Source of the DNA: a virus | Taxonomy: Duplodnaviria; Heunggongvirae; Uroviricota; Caudoviricetes | Virus record (IMG/VR): IMGVR_UViG_2537561930_000005 | Reading direction: 5' to 3' (one strand) | Length of the DNA: 36,611 nt | Part shown: positions 3,822-20,750 of the stretch, one piece after another | How the letters are laid out: every line of letters starts with the position of its first letter | Position numbering within the stretch: the stretch's first letter is position 1 | Notes under the pieces: generated by a model | Told to the model about the DNA's origin: nothing | Databases searched by the model: none | Seen by the model: the letters and a program-made list of their open reading frames with translations, nothing else | Translations under genes and position numbers: made by a program

Positions 3822-3918
3822 TTTTAACCCCACTCACCATCAGCAAACAAAGCGTTATACTCTGACATTGACATCCTCCCCCACCTTCGCACTTCGTGAC
3901 TCAGGAGGGGGATTCCCA

Positions 3919-5151: not shown

Positions 5152-5203
5152 TCAGTGTGTAGTAGATTTTCTTGCAATATTACTGTTTTTACGGCCAACC
5201 TCA

Positions 5204-5608
5204 ATGCAAAAATACAAAATCAATCGTTCAAGACATGCTGCCTTCCTTTTGCATGTTCATCTTGTCTTTGTAACAAAATACCGTCGAAAGATACTGGGAG
5301 AGTTACACTGTGCAGCATTCCATCAGTATGCAGCAGAAGTCTGCCGTGATTTTGGGGCAGAACTTAAAGAAAGTAACGGAGACGTCGATCATGTCCACAT
5401 GCTGATCGAATACCCACCAACAGTGCAGCTTTCGGTACTGGTTAACTCACTGAAAGCAGTGACATCCCGCCGTCTGCGAAACGAATTTCTTGATTTGCGG
5501 GGGGCATACGGAAAAGCCGTGCTCTGGTCGAGGTCATACTTTGCTGGCTCCTGCGGAGGTGCGCCGCTGGAAGTTGTGAAGCAATATATTCAACATCAGC
5601 GAGGCTGA
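5204..5608 (+). CDS. tnpA: IS200-type Y1 (HUH) transposase TnpA, 134 aa
   Basis: HUH motif (HVHMLIEYPP) and conserved IS200 TnpA length and architecture. Confidence 0.85.
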   Translation: MQKYKINRSRHAAFLLHVHLVFVTKYRRKILGELHCAAFHQYAAEVCRDFGAELKESNGDVDHVHMLIEYPPTVQLSVLVNSLKAVTSRRLRNEFLDLRGAYGKAVLWSRSYFAGSCGGAPLEVVKQYIQHQRG

Positions 5609-5680
5609 GCACCCTTCGGGCTTTTCAAGCCCGTCCAAATTCCCCTCCCGCCTTATGTCGGCGGGAGTACCCTTTGGAAG

Positions 5681-5968
5681 TTAAGATGGTAGACGGTTGC
5701 CCTCGATGTAGAGATTCAGTTCATACTTCGTCTCCGGGTTTTCCTTGTCGGCTCGTTCCCAACGCTCAGCAGCCTCACGCGCCAATAATTCCACTGCTTT
5801 CAGATAATCCTCCGTACGGAACCAGCCAAAGATAAGGCCACGATCTGTTACAGCCCAGGCAACCTTTTTTTCTTCCTCCTGGATAGCCTTAATGCGTCGA
5901 TCGCATTCATCCCGGCAAAACTGCAGCTGACGGTAATCAAGTTTGTCCAAAAATGCAGTAGTAGACAT
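5681..5968 (-). CDS. Hypothetical protein (95 aa) downstream of repA
   Basis: ORF on the repA strand; no recognised domain. Confidence 0.35.
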   Translation of the reverse strand: MSTTAFLDKLDYRQLQFCRDECDRRIKAIQEEEKKVAWAVTDRGLIFGWFRTEDYLKAVELLAREAAERWERADKENPETKYELNLYIEGNRLPS

Positions 5969-5972
5969 ATTT

Positions 5973-6164
5973 TTACTCCCCGTTCACCGAAAAATCACGA
6001 TAGAAACGTTTCCACATACGATAAGTCTGCGCGAGTTGTTCACCACGAAACATCGCCTTCCTGGCCTTCATGTTTTCCTTGTGAGACTTTCGATCTATGA
6101 ACCAAAACCATTGCTGGAACACACAAAGCAAGAGACACAAAGATAATATCCACTGATTACCCAT
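5973..6164 (-). CDS. Small membrane protein (63 aa, MGNQWILSLCLLLCVFQQWFWFI...)
   Basis: ATG at 6164 lies 2 nt upstream of the repA TAA stop (ATGGGTAA), suggesting translational coupling. One clear hydrophobic helix. Confidence 0.3.
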   Translation of the reverse strand: MGNQWILSLCLLLCVFQQWFWFIDRKSHKENMKARKAMFRGEQLAQTYRMWKRFYRDFSVNGE

Positions 6165-9100
6165 AGAAAGCGCCCTGCTCTTCGTAGCTGCATGGGCTAT
6201 TCCCGGTAATGTATTCACGTAACCGCCGCAGTTCATTGCTGGATAAGTGATCCATGAACTCTGTGAGGTACAGAGATGCAAACGTCATAGCTATGCTGGC
6301 TGATGACCATGATGACATAGTGGCCAGCTCCTCACCGGAAAGCGCACTCATCGCCCAGGACTCAGGTACAACCACTGGCAACACAGCCAAAGCCTCAGAA
6401 ATTACTGAATGAGGGGCGTTTTGAACCTGCTCGTTTGTGGATCGCGTTTTATCATCCATATATATATTGAGATCCAAATCGCGATCCATTTCGATGGCGG
6501 TCTTCTCGGCTTTACGCGTTTTCAGGGTTAGGCCATCTTTCTGACGCTGAGCAAGAATATCCAGCATAAATGCCGCTGATTCAGGCTCAACAAAACGCAA
6601 GGTTGGACGCTTATCGCCGTCTCTGCCGCGACGTTTACCTGTTTTAAGGCCAAGAGAGTCGCAAATGTTTTTAAACAACGCTTCCGGCACTTTAGGCTTC
6701 CCTTTTGGCGTCATAAAACCACCAATGTGCAGAACGTTATTCAACAGGTCACGGCGTTCGGCTGTCATGAGGTTATCTCGAGCAAATTTGAGACGCTCCT
6801 GAGTCGCCTCGCCGGTCATAGTCTCAGGGTTGATACCGCAGTCGATAAAGTACTGCCGGAGAGTTGCTGATTTAAGCGCATAGAAACCGCGCGCCCCGAC
6901 TTCAACAGTAGGAGTAGCTTTTACCTTGTGATCGATTATTCCAGGGAATTTAGTTTTAAAGACATCATCAGCCTGCTCGCGAGTCATCGCGGTCACTACA
7001 AAATATTGCCACTGTCCCGCCTGACGGTATGCGTAGGTAAAATTGATGGCTGCTTCTTCCCGGTCGTAACGACGAGCTGTTACCTCATCTAAAAGCATTG
7101 TTTCATAGCGGCGAACTTTGTCTCGAGCACCATCGAAATAGAATTTCAGCGTGCCTTCTTCAACCGGTAGTTTCAGTTCGTTTTCAATATCCCAGCGGAC
7201 AAGTTTTGCCTGTTCTTCAAGCGTCAGCGCGCGTTTTTTTAGCAGTTCTTCACGCTCTGATTCTTGTGGAGTTTCTGTATTGAGATGCAGATCCAGTGTC
7301 TGTTCCCACACAATATCCCGCGCTTCTTTACGCAGCTCTTTACCGATATCATTCGCAGCATAATCGGTGGCCAGCGGCGATACCTTATAACCGTCGCTGT
7401 GCATGATGCAGATCATGTTGCTGGCGTAGTCGTTACGCGCAGTCGCTTCAATAGCGGCTGCTTTAATTTTCATCCTGGTAAAGTCGGTATTGGCCACCCC
7501 CATTGATATACGGTCGCCATCGAAAACGACATCCGTCAGTTCACCGTTCATACCTGCGGTAGCAAGCAATGCCTGGGCGAATGCTCGTTCTATTTTTTGC
7601 GGGTCAGTTTCACGTTTTGCACGAGCTTTATCAAAGCCGATAATAAATTCTTTTGCTGTACGGTCGCGGCGTAGCATTTGCACTGCGTCGCTGGGTACAA
7701 CTTCACCACAGAACATGCCGAAATGACGGTCAAAATGTTTTTGCTCAATCGACACGCCGGATGAAATAGACGGGCTATAAATCAGGCCGTCGTATTTTTT
7801 GACCATCTTTTTCGGTTGATTGGTAAATGCTTCAACTTCTGGCTCTGGTTTGTTTTTCTGGTTTACACACAGAAATTTCTTACCAGGAAAATGCATTCTC
7901 AGGGTGGCTGTCACATCTTCTGCAAAGGTGGAGCTGTCGGTGGCCAACATGATTTTTTCGCCATCCGATACAGCTTTCACCACCTCGGTCATGATGCGAT
8001 CTTTTTCTGTATAAAAAACCCGGATTGGCTCACCTGTTTCGCGGTTGCGAACATCAACAGGTAATTCAATTACGTGGATCTGCAGCCATGCCGGTAAACC
8101 TAGTTCTTCACGGCGTTTCATAGCCAGTTCAGCCAGGTCAACCAGCAGATCATTCGCATCAGCATCCACCATGATTGGGTGTTGTTCTGTTCTGGCCAGC
8201 GCGTCAATTAGCGTATTGAATACAGCCACCGGGTTTTCCATAGCCCGACCGGAAAGAACGGCACGTAGCCCTTGTGTGGCCTCGTCAAAGCCAAAATAGT
8301 CGTGCTGGCGCATCAACGGTTGCCAGCAGTTTTTAACAATCGAGTTTATGCAGATGGTCAGTTTACTGGCGTATGGAGCCATTTCCTGATAGCCAGGATC
8401 CTGATAGTGCAGGATATCGGCTTTTACACCTTTTCCTTCTGTCATCATTTCCCACAGGCCGCCAATAAGGGAGACACGGTGAGCAACAGAGATACCACGT
8501 TCTGAGCTATGCATTAACGGTCGTAACAATCCAGTAGATTTGCCGGAACCCATACCAGCACGGACGATGACTATCCCCTGTAGTGATTGCACGTACTTCA
8601 GGACATCATCGGTCATTACCGAAGTTTCAAAACGCTTATAGGTGATATGTTGAGGGCGTTTATTGGGATCAGTTATGCGTTCGCTGAAAGAGCGCGGAGC
8701 CTGGGCAATACGGCACTTTTTATTCAGGCGACGGGCAATGTGGTCTTTTACCGTAGCGCGATAGATATTTTCCAGTCCCATTTCACGCAGAACGATGCAG
8801 AACATGTTAAATAAATCTGACGGACTGTTAGGAACCGGACAGGTTAGCATGCCAATATCCACCGCTCTCAGCAGCTCTTTGGCAAAAGTACGACGGTTAT
8901 CCCGCTTAATTGTCTTCAGGCGGTTGAGCGTCAGAGATAGCAAATCAGTACCAGTTTTCAGGCGGTTTGCTGTTGCAAATAGTTGACGTGCTGTTTCACG
9001 AAGTCCACGTAGTTTGTGCAGGTCGTTGAAGTCACTGCACTCCATTTGCGGATCGTCTTCAAAAGTTGGATAGACGCAGCGGACATCGTTGAATTTCGAT

Positions 9101-10152
9101 AAGATTTCATAGCCAGTCCGCAGGCCGGTATTCCCTTTTCCTTCTGTGGCAGATTTCCGGTCATTATCCAGTGCGCAGGTGATTTTTGCCGCCGGGTACA
9201 TGTTTACCAGTTGTTCCACAACATGAACCATGTTGTTAGCGGATACAGCGACAACCACAGCGTCAAAGCGTTTATCTTTTTTCGTGGCAAGCCAGATGGA
9301 TGCACCAGTAGCAAAACCTTCTGTAACAGCGATGTTTTGCGCCCCTTTCAGCTCACCGATAACAAAGCAGGCACCGACGAAATCGCCGCTGGTTACTGCG
9401 CTGGTCTGGTATTTTCCACCTTGTTTGTCGATTCGCTGCCAACCCACAATACGACCATCGTAACGACCGTCCAGGTGAGCCAGAGGGATAGCCATATACG
9501 TGGTTGGCCCCCTGCTCCATTTTGCGCTGTCGTGACTGGTCACGCGACGCACATCACACGAATTAAAAACGTCACGAATACCTTTTTTAATCGCATATGG
9601 CCATGAGCCGTCTTCTGCAGGAGCATGTTCCCACGCGCTGTGAAATGCCAGCCATCCCAGCAAACGTTCATGGTCAATTTGGTTGTTTTTCAGGTCATTA
9701 ATTCGTTTTTGTTCTTCACGGCGACGACGTGCTTCGGCCTGACGTTCTATTCTTGCCCGTTCTTCTTCCGGTTGTGCGACCACGGTCGCATTATTCCGTT
9801 GTTGCTCACGGCGATATTCAGAAAACAGGAAGGAGAAACCGCTCCATGAGCCAGCATCGCTGCCTTTATGGACGAAGTTAATGAACGGGTAATCAATCCC
9901 TTTGCTGTGTTCCAGCCGGGAGTAAATTTCTACGCGTCCTTTGAGGCTCTTCTCGAGAGCTTCTGGAGATGTTTTATTGTATGAAGAGTAACGCTCAACA
10001 CCCCCGCGAGGGTTGAGTTGGATGTTGTCGGAACAGGCAGGCCAGTTGATACCAGCCATCTGTGCCAGCTCGGTTAGTTCATCCCGTGCTGCTTCAATTA
10101 GCGAGAACGGATCGCTGCCAAAGCGATCCGCATAGAAATCGTTTAATGTCAT
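6157..10152 (-). CDS. repA: Replication protein RepA, primase-helicase fusion, 1331 aa
   Basis: Giant ORF with Walker A (GMGSGKST) helicase region and N-terminal primase-like region. Size and position (divergent from telN, adjacent to cB) match N15 repA, which I recall is ~1324 aa. Confidence 0.8.
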   Translation of the reverse strand: MTLNDFYADRFGSDPFSLIEAARDELTELAQMAGINWPACSDNIQLNPRGGVERYSSYNKTSPEALEKSLKGRVEIYSRLEHSKGIDYPFINFVHKGSDAGSWSGFSFLFSEYRREQQRNNATVVAQPEEERARIERQAEARRRREEQKRINDLKNNQIDHERLLGWLAFHSAWEHAPAEDGSWPYAIKKGIRDVFNSCDVRRVTSHDSAKWSRGPTTYMAIPLAHLDGRYDGRIVGWQRIDKQGGKYQTSAVTSGDFVGACFVIGELKGAQNIAVTEGFATGASIWLATKKDKRFDAVVVAVSANNMVHVVEQLVNMYPAAKITCALDNDRKSATEGKGNTGLRTGYEILSKFNDVRCVYPTFEDDPQMECSDFNDLHKLRGLRETARQLFATANRLKTGTDLLSLTLNRLKTIKRDNRRTFAKELLRAVDIGMLTCPVPNSPSDLFNMFCIVLREMGLENIYRATVKDHIARRLNKKCRIAQAPRSFSERITDPNKRPQHITYKRFETSVMTDDVLKYVQSLQGIVIVRAGMGSGKSTGLLRPLMHSSERGISVAHRVSLIGGLWEMMTEGKGVKADILHYQDPGYQEMAPYASKLTICINSIVKNCWQPLMRQHDYFGFDEATQGLRAVLSGRAMENPVAVFNTLIDALARTEQHPIMVDADANDLLVDLAELAMKRREELGLPAWLQIHVIELPVDVRNRETGEPIRVFYTEKDRIMTEVVKAVSDGEKIMLATDSSTFAEDVTATLRMHFPGKKFLCVNQKNKPEPEVEAFTNQPKKMVKKYDGLIYSPSISSGVSIEQKHFDRHFGMFCGEVVPSDAVQMLRRDRTAKEFIIGFDKARAKRETDPQKIERAFAQALLATAGMNGELTDVVFDGDRISMGVANTDFTRMKIKAAAIEATARNDYASNMICIMHSDGYKVSPLATDYAANDIGKELRKEARDIVWEQTLDLHLNTETPQESEREELLKKRALTLEEQAKLVRWDIENELKLPVEEGTLKFYFDGARDKVRRYETMLLDEVTARRYDREEAAINFTYAYRQAGQWQYFVVTAMTREQADDVFKTKFPGIIDHKVKATPTVEVGARGFYALKSATLRQYFIDCGINPETMTGEATQERLKFARDNLMTAERRDLLNNVLHIGGFMTPKGKPKVPEALFKNICDSLGLKTGKRRGRDGDKRPTLRFVEPESAAFMLDILAQRQKDGLTLKTRKAEKTAIEMDRDLDLNIYMDDKTRSTNEQVQNAPHSVISEALAVLPVVVPESWAMSALSGEELATMSSWSSASIAMTFASLYLTEFMDHLSSNELRRLREYITGNSPCSYEEQGAFYG
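6436..6490. other. Candidate internal replication origin element within the 3' part of repA
   Basis: Inverted repeat GGATCGCG (6439-6446) / CGCGATCC (6480-6487) flanking an AT-rich spacer containing TATATATAT; three GATC sites within ~50 bp. Confidence 0.3.
9775..9790. other. sopC-like partition (centromere) site copy 1, TGCGACCACGGTCGCA, inside repA
   Basis: 16-bp element with 7-bp inverted arms around AC. Exact 16-mer is repeated at 12218 and 16512. Differs at 2 positions from the F SopB-binding core TGGGACCACGGTCCCA as I recall it. Confidence 0.6.
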
Positions 10153-10273
10153 TTTTTAGCCATTCCATGCGAATTATGTTTTTTCGGGTTGAAAAAATCC
10201 GCAGGAGCAGCCACAATAAACGCATCTTGAATTGACGGAATCCGTCGCTTTGTTGTGGCTGCTTCCTGAAAAG

Positions 10274-10303
10274 GACCCGAGTTTGCCGACTCGGGTTTTT
10301 TTT
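10274..10303 (+). terminator. Rho-independent terminator (stem CCCGAGT/ACTCGGG, loop TTGCCG, T8)
   Basis: Direct read: perfect 7-bp GC-rich stem followed by 8 T on the plus strand, between repA start and cB end. May also act on the minus strand. Confidence 0.6.
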
Positions 10304-10397
10304 CGTCTTTTTTCTGCTGCTGTAACCTGAGTCAACCCACAGAACATATGCCCTGCATTAAACCAGATTTACAGCAAACAATAAACCCCGTATTAAG

Positions 10398-10994
10398 TCA
10401 TCTACCCTCAACCATGAATGATTTGATCGTTCCGACTATTTGGTGAACAAATTCAAGATCGCTTTTCCTGAAGATAGCGCGTTGTGAGTTTGTTCCATCC
10501 AGATAGTAATTTTCATCATCAAAACGGGCTAGGCGCTGGATAGTGATATTTCCTGCAGTATCACGAACCAGAACATCCTCGCCGGGGACCAGTTCCAGCG
10601 CAGAATCGACCAGGAGAAAATCGCCTGGCTGATAGTTTCCCTGCGTAAGATTGCTGATAGTTAACGCATACACAGTATTGCGCTGGCTGATGAATGGCAG
10701 GAATCGCTCAGTATTTGGAACCTGTCCCGGCTTCCACTCTTCATCAGGCCCACTTTCAGTTGTGCCAATAACAGGAATGCGATCAGGGTCATATTCTGTC
10801 CCATATAGCACCCAATGTACTGGCTTGCGTAAGCACTTAGCCAGGGCAATACCTATCTCCAGTGACGGCATTACGTCGCCACGTTCTAAGTTTTGGACGC
10901 CTGCTATAGAGATATCGACAGCCTCAGCAACTTCTCGCAACGTCAGCTTCATCTCTAAACGGCGTGCTTTCAGTCGTTCGCCTCGTGTTTTCAT
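10398..10994 (-). CDS. cB: Prophage repressor CB (CI-like, N-terminal HTH), 198 aa
   Basis: HTH_XRE segment LTLREVAEAVDISIAGVQNLERG, CI/LexA-like C-terminal fold, divergent from a cro-like gene with palindromic operators between them. Confidence 0.8.
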   Translation of the reverse strand: MKTRGERLKARRLEMKLTLREVAEAVDISIAGVQNLERGDVMPSLEIGIALAKCLRKPVHWVLYGTEYDPDRIPVIGTTESGPDEEWKPGQVPNTERFLPFISQRNTVYALTISNLTQGNYQPGDFLLVDSALELVPGEDVLVRDTAGNITIQRLARFDDENYYLDGTNSQRAIFRKSDLEFVHQIVGTIKSFMVEGR

Positions 10995-11016
10995 ACTGTA
11001 ATCATAAATGATCTTC

Positions 11017-11032
11017 TTATAGCTGGCTATAA
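11017..11032. promoter_or_regulatory. Operator OR copy A, TTATAGCTGGCTATAA
   Basis: Near-perfect 16-bp palindrome in the cB-cro divergent intergenic region. Confidence 0.65.
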
Positions 11033-11042
11033 AATTTATTTA

Positions 11043-11058
11043 TTATAGCTGGCTTTAA
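11043..11058. promoter_or_regulatory. Operator OR copy B, TTATAGCTGGCTTTAA
   Basis: Second copy 26 bp centre-to-centre from copy A; TATAAT-like -10 at 11074-11079 just before the cro ATG. Confidence 0.6.
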
Positions 11059-11085
11059 TTATTGTTTATTGTTTATAATAACAAC

Positions 11086-11307
11086 ATGAAACCAGAAGAA
11101 CTTATTCGCCACTTTGGCAGTGTTGAAAAAGCAGCGGCAGGGGTAGGTGTAACACCCGGAGCTGTTTACCAATGGTTAACCGCTGGAGAGATTCCTTCAT
11201 TGCGGCAAAGCGATATTGAAGTTCGTACTGCTTACAAGCTGAAGAGTGACTTTACAACTCGGCGGGTAAAGCAGTCGATTAAGGAGAGTCGTAAGCGTGG
11301 AGCTTGA
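11086..11307 (+). CDS. cro: Cro-like repressor (HTH), 73 aa
   Basis: HTH FGSVEKAAAGVGVTPGAVYQWL; divergent from cB. Possibly leaderless, as the -10 lies immediately upstream. Start codon uncertain. Confidence 0.6.
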   Translation: MKPEELIRHFGSVEKAAAGVGVTPGAVYQWLTAGEIPSLRQSDIEVRTAYKLKSDFTTRRVKQSIKESRKRGA

Positions 11308-12007
11308 GTATATACGCAGCTGCGTCTCTACGGCATTGGCTGATGTTCATTATCGCCAGCGTGGCATTCTGGAGGTCCAGCTTGAGCAGATGCGTCTCGG
11401 TAGATCAGGACGGTTTAACAATAAACCAGTCCGGTCAATCAGTGTGGGGGATGATAACTCATACGAAGTGTCCGTTCCCGCTGAGCCGGTTAGATTCCAC
11501 CAGGGGAAAACATTTAAACAATCATCAATGTTGCTCACTGATATTGATTTTCAGAGCGCCAGCTGGCGCAGGGCTATTTGTCAGTTGAATAACGAGGAAT
11601 CAGCCTGGCTTTATTATTGCTACGGATGCAAGCCTGACTACAACAATGATGTGATTGTTTGTCAGTGGTTATGGCTTGATTTTCTGGTTGCTCATTCGGG
11701 GGGCGGCTTTAAAAAAATGAAGGCCTCCACGAAAAAAGCCATGCGGAAATTGATTTATTACGCGGCACAGCAGGTTAAATCAGAACTTACGTGTGCTGAG
11801 GCAGTTGATGAGAGAGAACAGGACAGGCATCTGAGTTTTCTACTGAATATATCTATTGATAGCTGGAGACAAGATTATAAAGAACGCTGGCTTTTAATTA
11901 AGTCGCGATGTCTGAGCTTAAATCGAACCGCATTATTAAATGCGGCGGAGAAGCGCAGTGAAATCATCAAACGCCATCGGGCAGGAAGTGCCATTCTGCC
12001 TTTGTAA
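11297..12007 (+). CDS. Putative late-gene regulator (Q-like antiterminator?), 236 aa
   Basis: GTG start with RBS AAGGAGAG, overlapping the cro stop. Position matches N15 Q by recollection only; no diagnostic motif verified. Confidence 0.35.
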   Translation: MELEYIRSCVSTALADVHYRQRGILEVQLEQMRLGRSGRFNNKPVRSISVGDDNSYEVSVPAEPVRFHQGKTFKQSSMLLTDIDFQSASWRRAICQLNNEESAWLYYCYGCKPDYNNDVIVCQWLWLDFLVAHSGGGFKKMKASTKKAMRKLIYYAAQQVKSELTCAEAVDEREQDRHLSFLLNISIDSWRQDYKERWLLIKSRCLSLNRTALLNAAEKRSEIIKRHRAGSAILPL

Positions 12008-12260
12008 ACAAGTTATGTTCAGGAAACCGTCGAAGCCAGAATTAAGGTATTCGGGGGTAAGAAATGAATATGTCATCTGGTGTCCAACTTGCGGTTACAG
12101 GACACGACCCGATAGTAATAAGCAGTCTGTAATTGCCGATTGGTATTTATCAAATCAGCCAGGTAATAAGCATATAGAAAATCTTTGGATTAAGCGTTAT
12201 CTGGAAATTAGAGAGGGTGCGACCACGGTCGCACAAGAAAATGAAAATAACGCCATTTAA
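11940..12260 (+). CDS. Small zinc-ribbon protein (CxC...CPTCG), possibly Lar-like
   Basis: Cys pairs CLC and CPTCGY. The ATG at 11940 overlaps the Q-like gene; alternative start at 12015. Confidence 0.3.
   Translation: MRRRSAVKSSNAIGQEVPFCLCKQVMFRKPSKPELRYSGVRNEYVIWCPTCGYRTRPDSNKQSVIADWYLSNQPGNKHIENLWIKRYLEIREGATTVAQENENNAI
12218..12233. other. sopC-like partition site copy 2 (TGCGACCACGGTCGCA)
   Basis: Exact repeat of the 16-mer at 9775; lies within the 3' end of the zinc-ribbon ORF. Confidence 0.6.
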
Positions 12261-12444
12261 ACAGGGGCCGATGACGCATGATGAGGCAGAGCGTCTTTCA
12301 GATACTTATCGGCGGCGTGGTAAGAAAGTTCTGGTTGTTCGTTCTGATTTTTTAGGTGATGGATATTGCGTTTATGTTCATTTACCTGAATCAGAAAGAG
12401 CACCAAAACCATCCAGAACATATCAACAGAAGTTTTGGGCATAG
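12241..12444 (+). CDS. Hypothetical small protein (start uncertain: 12241 or 12271)
   Basis: ORF only; no recognised domain. Confidence 0.3.
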   Translation: MKITPFKQGPMTHDEAERLSDTYRRRGKKVLVVRSDFLGDGYCVYVHLPESERAPKPSRTYQQKFWA

Positions 12445-12467
12445 ATAAACATTGAGGAGAATTATTC

Positions 12468-13067
12468 GTGACTAATCAGATAATTTACGACAGGAAACGG
12501 TCTGATGTAATGATTGACCTTGAAACAATGGGTACTAATACATGTGCTCCAATTGTTTCTATCGGGGCAGTGTTTTTTTCTCCTGAAAGTGAGGAATTAG
12601 GTGCCACTTTTTATGTACCAGTGAATCTCAGAAGCTCGATGTTAAATGGTGGTGTTGCCGATGGTGATACCATTTTATGGTGGTTGCGGCAGAGCAAGGA
12701 AGCCAGAGCCGCAATTTGTACTAATGATGCCCTTGATATTAATGATGCACTTTTTGAATTATCACACTTTATTACTTGCCATGCTTGTAATTTAAAAACA
12801 TTGAAAGTATGGGGAAATGGAGCAACGTTCGATAATGTAATTTTACGCGGCGCTTATGAGCGCGTTGGCTTATCCTGTCCGTGGGAATATTTTAATGATC
12901 AGGATGTTCGAACAATCGTTAATCTTGGTCAGTTTATTGGTTTTAATCCTAAAAAAGATATGCCATTTGATGGCGAACGACACAATGCCCTGGCTGATGC
13001 TATTCATCAGGCTAAATATGTATCTGCAATTTTCTCCCGTCTTGTAAAAGGGCAAGGAGAATCGTAA
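12468..13067 (+). CDS. DnaQ-like 3'-5' exonuclease (DEDDh), 199 aa
   Basis: GTG start with RBS GAGGAG. Motifs MIDLETMG (Exo I D-x-E) and HNALADA (Exo III H-x4-D). Confidence 0.65.
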   Translation: MTNQIIYDRKRSDVMIDLETMGTNTCAPIVSIGAVFFSPESEELGATFYVPVNLRSSMLNGGVADGDTILWWLRQSKEARAAICTNDALDINDALFELSHFITCHACNLKTLKVWGNGATFDNVILRGAYERVGLSCPWEYFNDQDVRTIVNLGQFIGFNPKKDMPFDGERHNALADAIHQAKYVSAIFSRLVKGQGES

Positions 13068-13486
13068 TGGCAAAGGCTTTTACACCAGAACAGAGGGAAG
13101 AACTGAATAAACAAATTGTGGAACTCGTGCGCCTGAATGGACGAGGAACGGTTAGGCAACTTGCGGATGAAACTGGTATTAGCCGGTGTGCTGTTAGTCG
13201 TTTATCAAGAGAGCTTGCTGCCAGTGGTGATTTGTATATCTCTGGCTCCGGGATATTTCTGTCTGCACAAGCACGCAAGGACTGGCAAAACGCCCGTAAA
13301 AAACTATCAAGAGTAAAGCCGAAGAAATCGGTAGTGGTTGATCCAGACCTTATCTGGTCATTACCTGACGGAGAAATACGTCGCTACGACAGGCGCCTGA
13401 ACATGATTTGTCACGATTGTCGGAAGAGCGAAGTTATGCAGCGTGTGTTGGCGTTTTATCAGGGAAATTTTCAGGAGGTGGCGTAG
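13067..13486 (+). CDS. Winged-HTH DNA-binding protein, 139 aa
   Basis: Segment TVRQLADETGISRCAVSRLSREL resembles an HTH. ATG overlaps the upstream stop (TAATG). Confidence 0.45.
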   Translation: MAKAFTPEQREELNKQIVELVRLNGRGTVRQLADETGISRCAVSRLSRELAASGDLYISGSGIFLSAQARKDWQNARKKLSRVKPKKSVVVDPDLIWSLPDGEIRRYDRRLNMICHDCRKSEVMQRVLAFYQGNFQEVA

Positions 13487-13776
13487 TGAATATCGACACC
13501 ACGATAACGATCGATATGGCCCTAAATACCGGTCTGGCACTTCTCGGTTGGTTTTACATCATGTTCAGTGCGGGGAAGTGGGCGGCCTCTGTTTTTCTAA
13601 AGCAGTGGGGAAAGCGCCGCAAACAGGAAAAACGCCAGAAAGCGTTGGAGGCGTTCTATGACGCATTTGAACTTGGCCGCATTGAACCAGGTACAACAGC
13701 CAGGATAGCGACAAAAGGCGACCTGATGATAGTGATGTTCCGACAGGAGAGAGCAGAGAAAGGGGGATCAGCATGA
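13486..13776 (+). CDS. Small membrane protein (~96 aa)
   Basis: GTG at 13486 with RBS AGGAGG 7 nt upstream. Hydrophobic helix LALLGWFYIMF followed by a basic tail. Confidence 0.4.
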   Translation: MNIDTTITIDMALNTGLALLGWFYIMFSAGKWAASVFLKQWGKRRKQEKRQKALEAFYDAFELGRIEPGTTARIATKGDLMIVMFRQERAEKGGSA

Positions 13777-14432
13777 AATTTTCCAAATTTTCTGAGTTGG
13801 TGAATCGTATTTTGTCCAACAACCACAGCCATCGTCGCGATATGGATGTAACAATCGTTGTTCATTCGCCTGGCAGCATTGGTTCAACACCTTCAGTTGA
13901 GGTTCAGTCAATTCACGCTGGTTTTGATTGGGATTCCGGGAAAGTGCTTATTTTCCCAACACAGCCACTGACCACGCTAACACCAGAACAGATTACTGAT
14001 ATTACTGATAGTGTGCGCAAAGGTCAGTCTTGGCACGCATATCAGGAATATAAAAAGCATAAAGAGCAGTTGGAAAAATTGTCGATTGAGTTGGAATCAG
14101 CCAAAAATCACATAGCAGAACTGGAAGCCAAACCTGTAAGCCAAACTTACAAGTTAACTTTTGAGCAATGGCTGGAACAGCAGCATGACAAAATTGATGT
14201 TGATTGTGGATGTGTAAGTACAGAAATGCTTATGCACTGGATAAGGGTCGCGTATGAGGCTGGCAACTCTCCGGTAACTCCGGATGGTCATATTCAGTTT
14301 TCTGTTTCACTTCCTGCAGCATGTGGTGGAGATAAATATTTTATTGATGGTGTATTTCAACCTTTGAGATATGAGCGTGACTGTGAAAAAGCGGTTGTGG
14401 CCGCTGGCGGTGTAGTTAATTGGGTTAAGTAA
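13773..14432 (+). CDS. Hypothetical protein with central coiled coil, 219 aa
   Basis: ATG overlaps the upstream stop (ATGA) with RBS AGGGGGA. No recognised domain. Confidence 0.5.
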   Translation: MKFSKFSELVNRILSNNHSHRRDMDVTIVVHSPGSIGSTPSVEVQSIHAGFDWDSGKVLIFPTQPLTTLTPEQITDITDSVRKGQSWHAYQEYKKHKEQLEKLSIELESAKNHIAELEAKPVSQTYKLTFEQWLEQQHDKIDVDCGCVSTEMLMHWIRVAYEAGNSPVTPDGHIQFSVSLPAACGGDKYFIDGVFQPLRYERDCEKAVVAAGGVVNWVK

Positions 14433-14447
14433 TTTTCAGGAGGATTT

Positions 14448-14774
14448 ATGGCGCTGACAGCTGCAGAACGGCAAAGGAGACGCAGGGAACGGTTGAAGAA
14501 GGAAGGCACATCAAGACGGGACTGGATTCTGGAACCTGACGAGTTACGTATGTTGGGGGAAATTTGTGTATTGCGTAGACCAGGGCGAGTTCCATATTCA
14601 GAGAACGAAGTCATCGGACTGCTGATCAGGAAAAACTATAAGGAGTTGCAGAAACAGCTATCTACTACTTGTCCGCGATGTGGTCAAAGAATGCCTGTTT
14701 CAGAATGCATTTTTGATGGTGAAGGCTCATGCCACCTTACAACCACGAGGCTGAAACTTGCGCTCAAAGTGTGA
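14448..14774 (+). CDS. Hypothetical basic protein with C-terminal zinc ribbon (CPRCG...C..C), 108 aa
   Basis: RBS AGGAGG; Arg-rich N-terminus; Cys cluster. Confidence 0.45.
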   Translation: MALTAAERQRRRRERLKKEGTSRRDWILEPDELRMLGEICVLRRPGRVPYSENEVIGLLIRKNYKELQKQLSTTCPRCGQRMPVSECIFDGEGSCHLTTTRLKLALKV

Positions 14775-14792
14775 CTGGTCACGGAGGGGTAA

Positions 14793-14948
14793 ATGGACAA
14801 AAAGGCATTGCTTTTTGAAATGATACGAAAACGGAGCGAAAAGAGCTTTTCTGATGGTGGTGATGGGCTTTTGGAAGTGGTTGGGCGAGGCGCAGGAAGG
14901 GAACATAAGTATCGGACTACAAAGATATTTAACCAGTTAATCCATTGA
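14793..14948 (+). CDS. Hypothetical small protein (51 aa)
   Basis: Hand-translated ORF not in the supplied track. Strong RBS GGAGGGG 5 nt upstream of the ATG. Confidence 0.3.
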   Translation: MDKKALLFEMIRKRSEKSFSDGGDGLLEVVGRGAGREHKYRTTKIFNQLIH

Positions 14949-14965
14949 AAGCTGGCTATAAAATT
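14945..14965. promoter_or_regulatory. Third copy of the cB operator motif (AGCTGGCTATAAAATTT shared with OR copy A)
   Basis: 17-nt exact match to 11021-11037, in an AT-rich region upstream of the gene at 15017. Confidence 0.5.
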
Positions 14966-15016
14966 TGAGTTTTACCCTGTAATTTTATACAGTATCAAAT
15001 AACCTTTTTTAATTAA

Positions 15017-15235
15017 ATGGTATTAGATTCAATGACTGAAGCACCTGTATCAACTCTTGAAGAACTCGGATCAAACCTAAAAGACATCGACGCCGTTTTG
15101 GATCTGGTTAGCGTTGCTCTGGCTTCTCCAGAAGCCAGCTTGCATCTTGGCGAGATTTCACGACTTGTTAGTATGTCGCGGGAGATAGCTCAGAATTGCC
15201 AACAAGTTATTGCTGTTGAGAGTTTACATCATTGA
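15017..15235 (+). CDS. Hypothetical small acidic protein (72 aa)
   Basis: ORF downstream of the operator-like site; start uncertain. Confidence 0.35.
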   Translation: MVLDSMTEAPVSTLEELGSNLKDIDAVLDLVSVALASPEASLHLGEISRLVSMSREIAQNCQQVIAVESLHH

Positions 15236-15278
15236 TACACACCCCGCCCTTCCGGACGGGGTAGCGAAAAGGGTCTAA

Positions 15279-15566
15279 TCAATAGACGGCATTAATATTA
15301 ATCGTTGCACCGCATGCTTGGGCATATTTTGATAAAGTTTTCATGCTTGCCCCTAAAGGATTGCTTTCCAGGCGGCTGATAGCTGACGGGCGCAATCCCA
15401 TTCGTTCAGCCAGAGCTGACTTCGTTAAACCTGCTCTTTCCCTCATTTCGTATAACATTTCGACCATCTCCAGCTCTTTATCGGCCTCTTCATATCCTTT
15501 GATGGCTTCTGGAGTGTTGAGAAGTTTTTCTTTTACTTCGTTAAACGGGATGCCTTTCGCTTTCAT
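15279..15566 (-). CDS. HTH_XRE antitoxin (HigA-like), 95 aa
   Basis: HTH LTKSALAERMGLRPSAISRLE. ATG overlaps the toxin stop (TGATG); RBS AAGGAG lies within the toxin 3' end. Confidence 0.7.
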   Translation of the reverse strand: MKAKGIPFNEVKEKLLNTPEAIKGYEEADKELEMVEMLYEMRERAGLTKSALAERMGLRPSAISRLESNPLGASMKTLSKYAQACGATININAVY

Positions 15567-15877
15567 CAGTTCATCTCCTTCAGGCGAGTTCTGGCGATTT
15601 CGATAGCCTTCACCGGTGTTTTCTGTGTCTTTTTTACAAATGCATGCAATAGATAAATTTCGTTACCAGTCGCGTAGGCGTACAGCGTTCTTGCGATGTT
15701 TTTATCCCCTACTCGTAGTTCAAAAAGCCCTCCACCTATTACACGGCTATGGGGCATCTTCAGTTTGTTGCCTTCTTTCTCCAGTCGCTCAATTAATCTG
15801 GTCATGCGACCTCGCAAATCATCTGGTAGTTCAAGCAGTTCATCCAGTGCTGCAGGGTGGGTTATCACGTTAAACAT
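15566..15877 (-). CDS. RelE/ParE-superfamily toxin, HigB / Gp49-like, 103 aa
   Basis: Size, toxin-first order and sequence character match the phage Gp49-like (HigB-type) killer family, which was named after N15 gp49. Confidence 0.65.
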   Translation of the reverse strand: MFNVITHPAALDELLELPDDLRGRMTRLIERLEKEGNKLKMPHSRVIGGGLFELRVGDKNIARTLYAYATGNEIYLLHAFVKKTQKTPVKAIEIARTRLKEMN

Positions 15878-15935
15878 ATTATAGCCTCCATATCCATAAA
15901 ATACACCAAAACAAGAAAACAGCGCAAATTAAAAA

Positions 15936-15953
15936 TTTCACTAAAAAGTGAAA
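15936..15953. promoter_or_regulatory. Palindrome TTTCACT-AAAA-AGTGAAA, putative toxin-antitoxin operator
   Basis: Perfect 7-bp inverted arms ~60-80 bp upstream of the toxin start, in the divergent intergenic region. Confidence 0.45.
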
Positions 15954-16042
15954 AATAACACTGGATGTGTTCGTTTGGCAGAGTTACAGTTCGTGTCATT
16001 GAGGGGCAATAACCCACTAACTATATGAATTTGGAGGATATT

Positions 16043-16264
16043 ATGAATTATCAAGGTAACGAAAAAATGCGCGACGACGTTGCGGAGATAGCTAACGAAC
16101 TGTATGAGTTGTGGCAGAAGGTTGAACGTTTCGAAAAGGAATATGGTTTCAACAGTACCAACCTAGCAGACCGACTGGCTGGTCGCTTAGTTGGGACTAT
16201 GGGGCCAAAACTGGCTGAGTTGAACCGCTTTATGGCTGATGTTGATTTCCAGTTTCAAGATTGA
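16043..16264 (+). CDS. Hypothetical small protein (~73 aa)
   Basis: ATG at 16043 with RBS GGAGGA; an upstream in-frame ATG at 16025 is also possible. Confidence 0.4.
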   Translation: MNYQGNEKMRDDVAEIANELYELWQKVERFEKEYGFNSTNLADRLAGRLVGTMGPKLAELNRFMADVDFQFQD

Positions 16265-16277
16265 TTAGAGAGGCGTT

Positions 16278-16505
16278 ATGAATATTAATGAAATTCGTGG
16301 AAATATGACTGAAGCGGCCCTGAGTGTGGAATGTGTTATGCGTGGATACCCACGCATTTCCCTGAAAGAGTTAAGCGAAGCCTGTTTTTTGAGTCAGGCT
16401 GCCGTTGAATTTATCATCGAACAGATGATCTGTTTTGGGATTGCAAAGCGTAGCGGGTCTGGTCGATATTCTTTGACCGATGAATATAAGCAGGCAACTT
16501 TCTAA
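16278..16505 (+). CDS. Hypothetical small protein (75 aa)
   Basis: RBS GAGAGG; ORF only. Confidence 0.4.
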   Translation: MNINEIRGNMTEAALSVECVMRGYPRISLKELSEACFLSQAAVEFIIEQMICFGIAKRSGSGRYSLTDEYKQATF

Positions 16506-16511
16506 AAACTG

Positions 16512-16527
16512 TGCGACCACGGTCGCA
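16512..16527. other. sopC-like partition site copy 3 (TGCGACCACGGTCGCA)
   Basis: Exact 16-mer, intergenic, 7 nt after the stop of the upstream gene. Confidence 0.6.
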
Positions 16528-16614
16528 CAGCACAAAAACGAAAAAGCTTGGCAAAATGACGGTTTTTAGTTATTGTTTTGTTAAGTTGGGTTTTTTGTAC
16601 CCAACAGCTAACAA

Positions 16615-16637
16615 GCCGCCTTTATGGCGGTTTTTTT
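16615..16637 (+). terminator. Small rho-independent terminator (GCCGCC-TTTAT-GGCGG + T7)
   Basis: Direct read; position upstream of the late genes suggests a tR'-type terminator read through by antitermination. Confidence 0.45.
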
Positions 16638-16680: not shown

Positions 16681-16772
16681 GGTCAACCCATGCCAGAGCT
16701 ATAGGCTGAACCTAAAGCCCACCCGCGATGCGCATCGCCGGGTTAGCTTACCCAGGCAAAAAAATAATAGCT

Positions 16773-17849
16773 ATGTTCAAAACCACTAATATTCATGGCG
16801 CGCAACTCGTTTGCGCAGATTCTCTGCAATTTATCAAAACCATCCCTGATAACTCGGTCAATTTGATTGCAACAGACCCACCATACTTCGGCGTAAAGGC
16901 TAACGCATGGGATAACCAGTGGGATAGCGATGCTGACTTTTTGGGGTGGATTGACGAATTTTTGGCAGAATTTTGGCGGATATTGGCCCCTAATGGCAGC
17001 CTGTATATGTTTACCGGCTCTCGCCTTGCGTCAAAAATTGAATTATTAACTCGCGACCGTTTCAATGTTCTGAACCATATCATTTGGGCTAAACCCAGTG
17101 GTATGTGGCGCGGTTGTCATAAAGAAAGTTTAAGGGCTTATTTTCCTGCTACTGAAAGAATATTATTTGCAGAGCATTACGGCGCGTCAGGTTATGCGAA
17201 AGGTCAGTCAGGTTATGCTTCAAAATGTGCAGATTTAAGAAAAAATATTTTTTCTCCACTAATTGATGCTTTTTCGCTGGCTCGCCGTCAGTTAGATATA
17301 TCAGCCGCAGACATTAATTCAGCGACAGGAAAGCAGATGTGTTCACACTGGTTTTCTTATTCGCAGTGGCGGCTTCCATCATTAATTGATTTTAATAAAC
17401 TATGCGAATTATTTCGCAGGAAGGCAGATTCACTCGGTGTCCAGTGTCCATATCCTTTTAATGTTGATTATTCAGAACATGAAAAGCGTTATAGCGATCT
17501 GAAATTACATTATGAGGAAGTAAAGAAGCAGTATGATGATTTGAAGGTGCAGTATGAAAATTTACGCCGTCCATTTCATGTTACTGCTGATGTACCTTAT
17601 ACCGATGTATGGGAGTTTCCTCCTGTGCAATATTATCCTGGCAAGCACCCATGTGAAAAACCTGCAGCGATGATGGAACATATTATAAAGAGTAGTTCAC
17701 GCCCCGGAGATATCGTTGCCGATTTCTTTATGGGATCAGGCTCAACTATTAAAGCTGCGCTGAAGTTAGGACGTCAGGCAATAGGTATTGAGATTGAGAG
17801 CGAACGTTATCTTCAGACAGTTGATGAAGTGAAAAAGTTATTTGAGTAA
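16773..17849 (+). CDS. Orphan DNA methyltransferase (N6-adenine/N4-cytosine class, DPPY motif), ~358 aa
   Basis: Motif IV DPPY followed later by motif I FFMGSGST. No adjacent restriction endonuclease gene. Start uncertain (16728 or 16773). Confidence 0.75.
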   Translation: MFKTTNIHGAQLVCADSLQFIKTIPDNSVNLIATDPPYFGVKANAWDNQWDSDADFLGWIDEFLAEFWRILAPNGSLYMFTGSRLASKIELLTRDRFNVLNHIIWAKPSGMWRGCHKESLRAYFPATERILFAEHYGASGYAKGQSGYASKCADLRKNIFSPLIDAFSLARRQLDISAADINSATGKQMCSHWFSYSQWRLPSLIDFNKLCELFRRKADSLGVQCPYPFNVDYSEHEKRYSDLKLHYEEVKKQYDDLKVQYENLRRPFHVTADVPYTDVWEFPPVQYYPGKHPCEKPAAMMEHIIKSSSRPGDIVADFFMGSGSTIKAALKLGRQAIGIEIESERYLQTVDEVKKLFE

Positions 17850-17944
17850 CTGGAGAATATATTCCCCTGCCGTTTTTGGTAGGGGTTATTTTTGCCATAT
17901 AGTTTCCAAGCCGAAACCTCAGCAACTATTGCGAGGTAAGAGAT

Positions 17945-18217
17945 ATGAAGATGGATGAACGATACAGCAGTGCATCTTATGGTAGCGCTGGTCTTGCTGC
18001 GTTCTTTGCCAGCCTGTCATTGCAGGATTGGGGCTTCATTATCGGTGTCGCGTTCAGCATTATCCTCGGTGTGCTTACATACCGGCTCAATAAACGCGAG
18101 CAGATGAAGCGCACGAAGATATTGCAGGACATATTGGATAAAACTGATGCCAATAATATTTCTGCCACGGCGATGGTTATTGGTGAATTGGGAAAGAGAG
18201 CACCGAAGGAAATATGA
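17945..18217 (+). CDS. Holin with dual-start motif (MKM...), 90 aa
   Basis: RBS GAGGTAA; Met-Lys-Met start; hydrophobic helix [18 protein letters not shown]; immediately upstream of the endolysin. Confidence 0.7.
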
Positions 18218-18714
18218 TGCAGTCATCATTACGCAAAGCTGTCGCAACTGCTATTGGTGGCGGGGCTATTGCCATAGCATCTGTGCTCATCTCTGGTCCG
18301 AGCGGCAACGATGGTCTGGAAGGTGTGAAATATAACCCCTACAAAGACATCGTTGGTGTATGGACTGTATGTTACGGGCATACAGGAAAAGACATTATGC
18401 TCGGTAAAACGTATACCGAAGCAGAATGCAAAGCTCTCCTGAATAAAGACCTTGCTACTGTCGCCATACAAATTAACCCGTACATCAAAGTCGATATACC
18501 GGAAACAACGCGCGGTGCTCTTTACTCGTTCGTTTACAACGTGGGTGCAGGCAATTTCAGAACATCGACACTTCTTCGCAAAATCAACCAGGGCGATATC
18601 AAAGGTGCATGTGATCAACTACGTCGCTGGACATATGCTGGCGGTAAGCAATGGAAAGGCCTGATGACTCGTCGTGAGATTGAGCGTGAAGTCTGTTTGT
18701 GGGGGCAACAATGA
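18214..18714 (+). CDS. SAR endolysin (T4-lysozyme-like, GH24), 166 aa
   Basis: N-terminal Gly/Ala-rich signal-anchor-release segment ([20 protein letters not shown]) and catalytic E-x8-D-x5-T triad ([17 protein letters not shown]). Confidence 0.8.
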
Positions 18715-19178
18715 GCAGAGTAACCGCAATTATCTCCGCTCTGGTTATCTGCATCATCGTCTGCCTGTCGTGGGCGGTCAATCATTACCGTGATAACGCC
18801 ATCGTCTACAAAGAACAGCGAGATAAAAAAGTCAGTGAGCTGAAGCAGGCGACCGCCACCATTACTGACATGCAGCAGCGCCAGCGTTCTGCTGATGCAC
18901 TCGATGCTAAATACACGAAGGAGTTAGCTTATGCGAAAGCTGAAAATGATGCTCTTCGGCGCAAGCTTGATAATGGTGGTCGGGTGTTCGTCAAAGGAAA
19001 ATGCCCTGTGCCATCCTCAGCCGAAACCTCCAGCGCCTCCGGCATGGGCAATGATGCCACCGTCGAACTCTCTCCAGTTGCTGGACGAAACGTTCTCGGT
19101 ATCCGGGACGGAATTATCCGCGACCAAACAGCACTGAGAACGCTTCAGGAATACATCAGGACGCAATGCCTTCGATGA
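18711..19178 (+). CDS. Rz: Rz i-spanin, ~155 aa
   Basis: ATG overlaps the endolysin stop (ATGA); N-terminal TM helix and coiled coil; contains an embedded Rz1. Confidence 0.75.
18931..19137 (+). CDS. Rz1: Rz1 o-spanin lipoprotein embedded in Rz (+1 frame)
   Basis: Lipobox IMVVGC followed by a Pro-rich mature region ([16 protein letters not shown]), wholly within Rz. Confidence 0.7.
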
Positions 19179-19351
19179 TAGCGATAATTTTACTCATCAT
19201 CCTTCACATCTGGCTCTGTAGACAGGGTGGTGCTCACTTCTGGAGTGAATCCAGATTAAACATCTCATTGCTGATGCTTGATATTGAGCATTTTGCGCGC
19301 GGTAAGGGGCTGCGTTGAGATAAGAGCCAGTCATTACAAATACCAGGATTT

Positions 19352-19376
19352 AGCCTCGCATTCGCGGGGCTTTTTA
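19352..19376 (+). terminator. Rho-independent terminator after the lysis cassette
   Basis: Stem AGCCTCGC / GCGGGGCT (one G-U pair), loop ATTC, then T5. A second hairpin follows at 19388-19413. Confidence 0.5.
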
Positions 19377-19669
19377 TTGCCATTACAAAAGCCACTTCCT
19401 ACAGAGTGGCTTTGATAATGGCTTATACCCTACACGGGATAACTTAACTGATATCCCTTTTAAAGGATAAAGGTATTCAAGCCTGACACATCATGCGCTG
19501 TATCGTCGCCGTATTCCCGTATTAACAGAGACCGTAGCCCGACGGGGAACTCCTTCTGCGCGAGTGTGCGGGAATAATCAAAAACGATGCACACCGGGGT
19601 TACCGGGTACACATATTTCATCATGCCAGCGAGTCCGGTTCTGGCACGGAAAAAACCGGACGTTATGAT

Positions 19670-20080
19670 TTAGTGCGGAAATATTTGTGTAGTGTTCTGA
19701 ATGTTCTCAGTAAAGAGTAATGAATTATCAAAGGTATAGTAATACCTTTTGTTTTCGTGGATATTTGTAATCCATCTGAAAACCCCTGCTGTAGCAAGAT
19801 TTTTCCTGTATTCGTAAAATGATAACTCTCCTGATTTGAATCCTTTTAAGGTGGCTTCTATAAGGCATTTATTTTTTGAAAATCTTACATTTACAACCTT
19901 ACCCTGTCCTTTTATTAAAACCGTATTATCGTTTTCAAGAACAAGATGAATATTCTCTGTGGCTAAATAGTAAATGTAATGTGAGACATTGTGACGTTTT
20001 AGTTCAGAATAAAACCAGTGATAGTTTAAATTATTTCGCACTTTATCGAATATTTGTTTAAAAATGGCAACCTGAGCCAT
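19670..20080 (-). CDS. DUF1398-like protein (resembles E. coli prophage YbcV), ~136 aa
   Basis: Sequence MAQVAIFK...RWITNIHE...[13 protein letters not shown] matches my recollection of DLP12 YbcV. Low GC, moron-like. ATG at 20080 has a GGAAGG RBS. Confidence 0.5.
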
Positions 20081-20137
20081 TGTAGTACCTTCCATGTGAT
20101 ATGAGGGGGCGTAGTCTGCACGATTATCTAAATTGCT

Positions 20138-20371
20138 TCAATCTGGTCTGACCTGTTTTCTGAGCAATTCAGTAATGTCACTCTTTTCTTTGTTTGCTTC
20201 AGGCGAAACTCTTTTTTCTGAGCACAGTCTCCGGCGGCAGGCTTCAATGACCCAGGCTGAGAAATTCCCGGACCCTTTTTGAACAAGAGCGATGTTAATT
20301 TGTTCAATCATTTGGTTAGGAAAGCGGATGTTGCGGGTTGTTGTTCTGCGGGTTCTGTTCTTCGTTGACAT
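20138..20371 (-). CDS. DUF3950-like small protein (resembles YlcI), 77 aa
   Basis: Sequence MSTKNRTRRTTTRNIRFPNQMIEQINIAL...SAWVIEACRRRL matches my recollection of prophage YlcI; ribbon-helix-helix-like. Confidence 0.5.
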   Translation of the reverse strand: MSTKNRTRRTTTRNIRFPNQMIEQINIALVQKGSGNFSAWVIEACRRRLCSEKRVSPEANKEKSDITELLRKQVRPD

Positions 20372-20539
20372 GAGGTTGCCCTGTATTCAGTGTCGCTGAT
20401 TTGTATTGTCTGAAGTTGTTTTTACGTTAAGTTGATGCAGATCAATTAATACGATACCTGCGTCATAATTGATTATTTGACGTGGTTTGATGGCGTAGAT
20501 GCACGTTGTGACATGTAGATGATAATTATTATCATTTTG

Positions 20540-20750
20540 CGGGTCCTTTCCGGCGATCCGACAGGTTACGGGGCGGCGACCTCGCGGGTTTTCGCTATTT
20601 ATGAAAATTTTCCGGTTTAAGGCGTTTCCGTTCTTCTTCGTCATAACTTAATGTTTTTATTTAAAATACCCTCTGAAAAGAAAGGAAACGACAGGTGCTG
20701 AAAACGAGCTTTTGGGCCTCTGTCGTTTCCTTTCTCTGTTTTTGGCCGTG
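20540..20750. other. cos: Lambda-type cos site (cosQ-cosN-cosB); cohesive end GGGCGGCGACCT at 20570-20581
   Basis: The run ...CCGACAGGTTACG|GGGCGGCGACCTCGCGGGTTTTCGCTATTTATGAAAATTTTCCGG... matches the lambda genome ends as I recall them, immediately upstream of Nu1. Confidence 0.85.

Follow-up and report, generated by a model that had tools for sequence, protein, structure and literature searches.

The three palindromes and their surroundings

The DNA analysed here, a stretch of 36,611 nucleotides held as IMG/VR record IMGVR_UViG_2537561930_000005 (below referred to as the window), is an N15-like (Ravinvirus-type) linear plasmid-prophage of Escherichia coli. Our subject is a 16-bp palindrome, TGCGACCACGGTCGCA, which a preliminary description of the window had reported in three identical copies and had read as centromere sites scattered around the genome in the manner of phage N15, resembling the core of the sites bound by the partition protein SopB of plasmid F. 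A motif search of the whole window returned exactly three perfect copies, at 9775-9790 (site 1), 12218-12233 (site 2) and 16512-16527 (site 3), in agreement with that description, and when up to three mismatches were allowed over the same length no fourth site was found. The copies stand singly, with spacings of 2443 and 4294 bp, and there is no tandem array of sites in the window. When the window was shuffled 100 times with preservation of dinucleotide composition, the mean number of matches was 0.31 and the maximum two, compared with the three observed, so that the statement that three copies are far beyond chance is borne out. The half-site is not enriched in the window, where three additional occurrences of TGCGACC were counted versus about 4.8 expected. 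All three copies have the predicted F-like core of two 7-bp inverted arms flanking a central dinucleotide, which reads AC on the plus strand in each case. At sites 2 and 3 the palindrome reaches 18 bp (GTGCGACCACGGTCGCAC), and at site 3 it reaches 22 bp (CTGTGCGACC AC GGTCGCACAG).

Site 1 lies within repA (6157-10152, minus strand), the gene of a primase/helicase-type replication protein homologous to gp37 of N15, with approximately 73% nucleotide identity to N15 gene 37. The RepA product matches the Pfam families Toprim_3 and Herpes_ori_bp and is labelled primase or CyRepA1 in relatives. Codons 122-126 of repA, together with the last base of codon 121, make up the site and encode N-A-T-V-V-A. 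It falls well within the coding sequence, some 360 nt from the repA start, and its location inside this gene had been correctly recognized.

Site 2 is found downstream of the gene for the Q antiterminator (11297-12007, plus strand; Pfam Phage_antiter_Q, E=2.7e-84), within the 3' end of a small open reading frame (ORF), as had been proposed, and this ORF is kept as coding in all relatives. It is Cys-rich, corresponds to the 'orf QD1' region of N15 and is listed as 11940-12260 on the plus strand; its likely true start is at 12015, so that it would extend over 12015-12260, and public annotations give either an 81-aa or a 100-aa gene. Across the site it reads E-G-A-T-x-V-A, and its frame and third-position pattern are kept in seven genomes, although it has no Pfam match. 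The 81-aa product contains a CxC...CPxC pattern, possibly a zinc ribbon, and carries the E-G-A-T-x-V-A stretch near its C-terminus. Site 2 ends only 7 nt short of the start codon (ATG, 12241) of the conserved ORF that follows, which encodes 67 aa and overlaps the 81-aa ORF (the pair spans 12015-12444); it is likewise conserved in relatives and gives no Pfam match.

Site 3 is intergenic and upstream of the late region, as the preliminary description had it: it begins 6 nt past the stop codon of a gp51-like ORF (16278-16505), and 20 nt lie between its end and the -35 motif of the late promoter. This promoter, the homologue of N15 p52, was located by a promoter scan at 16548-16576 on the plus strand (-35 TTGGCA at 16548-16553, a 17-bp spacer, -10 TATTGT at 16571-16576) and aligns with the annotated -35/-10 of N15 (41162-41190) and with the 'putative late promoter' of phiKO2. 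Downstream of it the terminator scan called an intrinsic terminator at 16613-16633 (plus strand; 8-bp stem followed by a T-run), a target of antitermination by Q, which matches the position of the N15 stem-loop 41229-41250. The first late gene, at 16728-17849, encodes a DNA methylase (Pfam). Site 3, the late promoter and the terminator reproduce the IR3-p52-terminator layout of N15.

Between sites 2 and 3, on the minus strand at 15279-15877, a RelE/ParE-type toxin of the Gp49 family is encoded together with a helix-turn-helix antitoxin; this pair constitutes a second plasmid-stability module, like genes 48-49 of N15.

Correspondence with the partition sites of N15 and phiKO2

Four natural SopB-binding sites of N15, designated IR1-IR4, have been printed with their flanks (PMC7205306, Table 4). 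The motif occurs in the N15 genome at 33480 (gene 37, repA), 35931 (between Q and gene 41), 41125 (21 bp upstream of the annotated late -35) and 45562 (downstream of gene 58), and the printed flanks match these four positions one for one. The 16-mer of the window is identical to IR1 and IR4 as they appear in that table, and to the N15 genome site at 45562. The N15 record NC_001901 reads AGCGACC at 33480 (IR1) and the IR1 oligonucleotide of the table reads TGCGACC; the discrepant base is a synonymous GCT/GCA position in repA.

The correspondence extends beyond the palindromes, since 40-75 bp on each side of sites 1, 2 and 3 can be aligned with the flanks of IR1 (33480), IR2 (35931) and IR3 (41125), respectively, which makes the window sites positional orthologues of the N15 sites and more than look-alikes. 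Site 3 aligns in addition with phiKO2 45384-45401. The phiKO2 GenBank record (NC_005857) labels this segment a partitioning site, directly in front of the -35 that it gives for the late promoter, and has a 'putative plasmid partitioning site' at the same four places as in N15.

Both the sequence identity with the N15 IR sites and the match in position to IR1-IR3 support the earlier interpretation as N15-type dispersed SopB sites. The window has three exact copies with the arms TGCGACC/GGTCGCA, placed as dispersed single copies at conserved positions (sites 1-3) on a linear plasmid-prophage with a protelomerase and an N15-type repA. We consider it very probable that the three palindromes are parS-type centromere sites of the Sop (type Ia ParABS) partition system of this N15-like linear plasmid-prophage, and sites 1, 2 and 3 are predicted SopB-binding sites orthologous to IR1, IR2 and IR3.

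Conservation of the sites at the DNA level

Thirty-one sites were compared in seven genomes (the window, PhiR46_1, N15, phiKO2, KpLi5, Klebsiella phage 020009 and Enterobacter phage MStein-2023a), which are 73-89% identical. The arms TGCGACC/GGTCGCA are invariant throughout, except that two copies each have a single altered base. At the centre, AC stands in 18 sites, GT in seven, GC in four and AT and TC in one each, so that the dinucleotide is purine-pyrimidine in 30 of the 31.

For the two sites located within genes, the conservation could be set against that of the surrounding codons. In a six-genome alignment of repA (73-89% pairwise identity) 15 of the 16 positions of site 1 are invariant, and the site forms the second-longest invariant run in 1887 alignment columns. 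The third-codon positions covered by its arms are invariant in five cases out of six, compared with 157 of 620 elsewhere in repA. The repA codon preceding the site varies (AAT, GGT, CAT), and its final T, which is the first base of the palindrome, is always kept. At site 2 the arms are invariant at all 14 positions; the centre varies (AC, TC, GC, GT), and this variation alters the encoded residue (T, S, A or V). Third-codon positions are invariant here in 6/6 cases versus 16/67 outside the site (p=4e-4), and for sites 1 and 2 combined the arm third-codon positions are invariant in 11/12 cases versus 173/687 outside (Fisher p=3e-6). At the sites within coding sequence selection acts on the DNA itself, beyond any constraint from the overlapping protein, and the window provides a clean example of a protein-binding site held perfect within two coding sequences through selection at the DNA level.

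No copy of the motif was present in 207 kb of sequence from ten chromosomal lambdoid prophages with tail genes identical to those of the window, or in another lambdoid locus of 50 kb; on this comparison it is restricted to N15-like elements. In IMG/VR the 18-mer is present at at least 120 loci, many of them with several copies kilobases apart. Among the matches listed, 69 loci have N15-like neighbour genes, and the 51 others could be chance matches or other regions.

The replicon and its partition genes

The assignment to the N15-like replicons made in the preliminary description is confirmed by the presence of the protelomerase, RepA, the cB/cro switch and Q. An exact look-up of RepA, together with base-for-base identity over window positions 1-20152, identified the window as the whole of draft contig AQFH01000007.1 from E. 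coli GCA_000356745.2. The contig begins about 120 bp inside telL (window position 1 is PhiR46_1 position 121, and telL of PhiR46_1 is annotated at 1-22) and runs to the lambda-J-like tail gene J, within which its last position, 36611, falls; hence approximately 10 kb of the replicon, the telR end, are on another contig. The left (telL) end is marked by the protelomerase gene telN (83-1984, plus strand), the product of which contains the Pfam TelK_N, muzzle, catalytic and stirrup domains. The core genes telN, repA, cB, Q and those from terminase to tail are all intact ORFs. The head and tail genes, of lambda type, are almost the same as in E. coli lambdoid prophages, and tail protein K is common to thousands of chromosomal lambdoid prophages.

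In a megablast search against phage genomes the window had 97% identity with Escherichia phages YDC107_1 and PhiR46_1 and around 75% with N15, phiKO2 and a number of Klebsiella and Enterobacter relatives, and the closest matches among complete E. coli genomes and plasmids had 87% coverage at 97% identity, none being exact. Relative to PhiR46_1 and pEC21Z151-46K the window carries an IS200/IS605-family insertion at 3870-5686, with tnpB at 3919-5151 on the minus strand (410 aa, OrfB_IS605/Cas12f1-like_TNB) and tnpA at 5204-5608 on the plus strand (134 aa, Y1_Tnp). The 'complete genome' of YDC107_1 (CP025712.1) is a hairpin read-through assembly in which the telN-repA arm is duplicated as an inverted copy and the sopAB end is lacking; the best phage match was therefore unusable for the sop end.

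It had been noted that the cognate sopAB operon is not in the window. This is correct, but the absence is an artefact of assembly: the window is a complete draft contig, and sopAB is missing from it because the contig ends in gene J. Three contigs encoding a 100% identical RepA run through the telomere junction into sopA and sopB, which adjoin telN in the gene order telN-tel-sopA-sopB. On these contigs sopA encodes a ParA-type ATPase of 388 aa, and sopB a protein of 321 aa with the Pfam domain SoPB_HTH that is 73% identical to SopB of N15. In the complete relatives PhiR46_1 and pEC21Z151-46K sopAB is located at the telR end. In the complete relatives, the head, tail and sop parts contain no IR copy in any genome, so that the unseen 10 kb or so of the replicon probably adds no further site.

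Alignment with the crystallised fragment of F SopB revealed that the residues making base contacts, R190, R195 and R219 (PMC3177203), are kept in all N15-type SopBs, and that all of these carry N in place of K191 and D in place of S189. The K191N replacement may go together with the single change in the arm, G to C at position 3, as judged from the sequences. For F SopB, no arm base matters less than position 3, which is also the position that varies most among natural sopC arrays (PMC3177203). In vivo, N15 SopB forms foci on a 4xIR array and a hybrid carrying the DNA-binding domain of F SopB does not (PMC7205306). By analogy with these experiments on N15 and F, specific SopB binding and stabilisation in cis would be expected at the window sites.

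Alternative explanations and the number of sites

Several points weigh against the interpretation of the palindromes as working centromere sites. The sopAB genes of this strain are not on the contig, which stops in gene J, and the cognate protein has consequently been deduced from relatives; both SopB binding and plasmid stability are, for this phage, carried over by analogy from other systems. Only three sites are visible, whereas N15 and phiKO2 each have four and other relatives from five to seven, so that full partition proficiency with three sites has to be assumed. Finally, the palindromes also fold as RNA hairpins (-11 to -16.3 kcal/mol).

The number of sites is three in the window, four in N15 and phiKO2, five in the closest complete relatives and seven in Klebsiella phage 020009. 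Between the lysis genes and cos, at 19170-20520, the window contains a lambdoid DLP12-type ybcV/ylcI module (DUF1398 ybcV, YlcI/YnfO), which replaces the N15-type gp56-59 region. Blast showed the segment to lack homology with PhiR46_1 17412-19794, where two sites are located (17794 and 18014), and to have 99% identity with an ordinary lambdoid prophage. The IR4-type site or sites are thus absent from the window because the lambdoid module has replaced the segment that carried them, and the number of centromere sites (3 to 7) shifts among relatives through module exchange. Plasmids matching window 19150-20750 were considered as phage-plasmid relatives and rejected, the matching sequence being ordinary lambdoid/DLP12 DNA. 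In some relatives sites are doubled at distances of 47-220 bp, as in Klebsiella phage 020009 at 16138/16185 and 19432/19586, and PhiR46_1 also has paired sites, at 17794 and 18014.

Such a history leaves room for the view that the sites are inherited relics which no longer work, for instance through loss of sopAB or because, with the IR4 region gone, three sites do not suffice. The absence of sopAB from the contig, the exchange of the IR4-type module for lambdoid DNA and the IS200/IS605 insertion would all fit a mosaic, possibly decaying prophage. However, each of the three 16-mers is perfect and the core genes are uninterrupted, which makes this explanation unlikely; contigs of other isolates with an identical RepA do carry sopAB, and the telomere hairpin and a tail gene that also occurs in other prophages account for where the contig breaks off. 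We therefore leave this alternative only a very small probability.

Slightly less probable still is the possibility that the palindromes function as RNA hairpins, that is as intrinsic terminators or as elements of RNA stability or processing, and not as protein-binding DNA. Each site can form a stem of 6-9 bp, with z-scores down to -4.9, and the RefSeq record of N15 labels the IR4 site (45560-45584) a 'putative rho-independent terminator'. However, a run of T/U follows none of the three window sites, so that they lack the hairpin-then-U-tract structure of a rho-independent terminator, and the reading as terminators was rejected on this ground. The terminator scan called only the separate hairpin at 16613-16633 and none of the three sites, and a terminator at site 1, in the middle of repA, would be lethal to replication. 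Furthermore, the arms are invariant, without compensatory covariation, and the asymmetric centre flips its orientation between close relatives, as expected of a site for a symmetric dimer.

Just as improbable is a role as operator for Q, the CB repressor, Cro or RepA rather than for SopB; the surroundings are regulatory (in repA, beside Q and beside the late promoter), and the preliminary description had itself named a regulator such as Q or RepA as a possibility. The CB/Cro operators, however, belong to another repeat, TTATAGCTGGCTATAA, which lies at 11014-11065 in the intergenic region between cB and cro, the location of the CB operators annotated for N15, and the operator reading was rejected on that account. 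N15 SopB forms its foci, lost in the hybrid with the F DNA-binding domain, on arrays of a sequence identical to the motif (PMC7205306), and the motif is one position per arm from the F SopB site, with the same purine-pyrimidine rule for the centre. The repeat TTATAGCTGGCTATAA occurs twice in that intergenic region, and a third copy was found at 14943-14968, upstream of a gp47-like ORF at 15017.

Proposed role of the sites

With the palindromes taken as centromere sites, we propose that a dimer of the phage SopB, a member of the ParB family, would bind each 16-bp site, a helix-turn-helix engaging each of the 7-bp arms, and would spread from the bound sites, acting as nucleation points, to form partition complexes. 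SopA, the ParA ATPase, would then position these complexes on the nucleoid, ensuring that both daughter cells receive the low-copy linear plasmid.

The sites are distributed over the replication/lysogeny-control region and the late-control region, unlike those of F, which cluster beside sopAB. Work on N15 by Ravin, Rech and Lane in 2008 (J Bacteriol 190:3538), a study cited in PMC11652158, is said to have found that IR2 and IR3 together with SopAB facilitate Q-dependent late expression and that mutation of these sites delays lysis after induction. By analogy, the IR2-type and IR3-type sites probably also aid Q-dependent late transcription during lytic growth. It is conceivable, though we hold it to be rather improbable, that SopB, once bound to the repA site and spread out from there, would act as a roadblock or silencer, coupling repA expression to the partition complex, and that the lineage functions with three sites within 6.7 kb. 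If three sites do suffice after the loss of IR4, the window would represent a natural experiment on the number and dispersal of centromere sites needed by a linear plasmid.

The biology described here is already known, the sites being the orthologues of N15 IR1-IR3 in an E. coli N15-like phage-plasmid, and the discovery value is for that reason little; the high interest that the preliminary description had attached to the sites was overstated for what is textbook N15 biology. Dispersed SopB sites at exactly these positions were reportedly described in work on N15 more than 20 years ago. The value of the result is in annotation, as the RefSeq/PGAP records of many E. coli N15-like phage-plasmids do not have these sites marked, and the marks may be transferred with confidence.

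Comparison with known partition systems

The core of the F sopC site is TGGGACCACGGTCCCA (probe sopC2, PMC3597684). The window sites share with it the 7-2-7 architecture, 14 of 16 bases and a purine-pyrimidine centre (AC). They depart from the F consensus at positions 3 and 14, which are C/G in the window and G/C in F, and the claim that the motif differs from sopC at two symmetric positions was correct (PMC3597684). The SopB proteins are homologous (about 44-49% identity) and the contact residues R190, R195 and R219 are conserved, whereas K191 of F SopB is replaced by N in N15-type SopB. The arrangement of the sites is also different: F has 10-12 tandem repeats of 43 bp adjoining sopB, and the window, which has no such repeats, carries its copies singly and dispersed. 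F SopB is reported to work only with its own site and N15 SopB to tolerate sopC as well (PMC7205306), and binding of F SopB to sopC has been shown to require a purine-pyrimidine central dinucleotide (Pillet et al. 2011, PMC3177203). This rule of the Sop subfamily holds in all three window sites, each of which has AC at its centre.

Chromosomal parS sites resemble the palindromes of the window in being dispersed 16-bp palindromic nucleation sites for ParB, some of them inside genes. They differ in their consensus, TGTTNCACGTGAAACA, in belonging to another ParB subfamily (type Ia chromosomal) and in their cargo, which is the chromosome.

Much closer are the sites of the N15-like phages themselves. 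PhiKO2 (GenBank NC_005857; Casjens et al. 2004) has four copies of TGCGACCACGGTCGCA. Those in repA, downstream of Q and upstream of the late promoter correspond one-to-one to the window sites, and the fourth follows gene 58; the phage differs from the window in its Klebsiella host, in its HK97-like head/tail module and in having retained the fourth site. With N15 the window shares the replicon type, comprising telN, repA, cB/cro and Q, the 16-mer of IR1 (as published) and IR4, the arms of IR2 and IR3, and the dispersed arrangement of the sites at the same three positions, in repA, after Q and before the late promoter. The window phage nevertheless represents a separate species-level lineage with approximately 73-77% nucleotide identity to N15; its head and tail genes are the lambda-type ones of E. 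coli lambdoid prophages, and its site centres are all AC, those of N15 being AC, TC, AT and AC.

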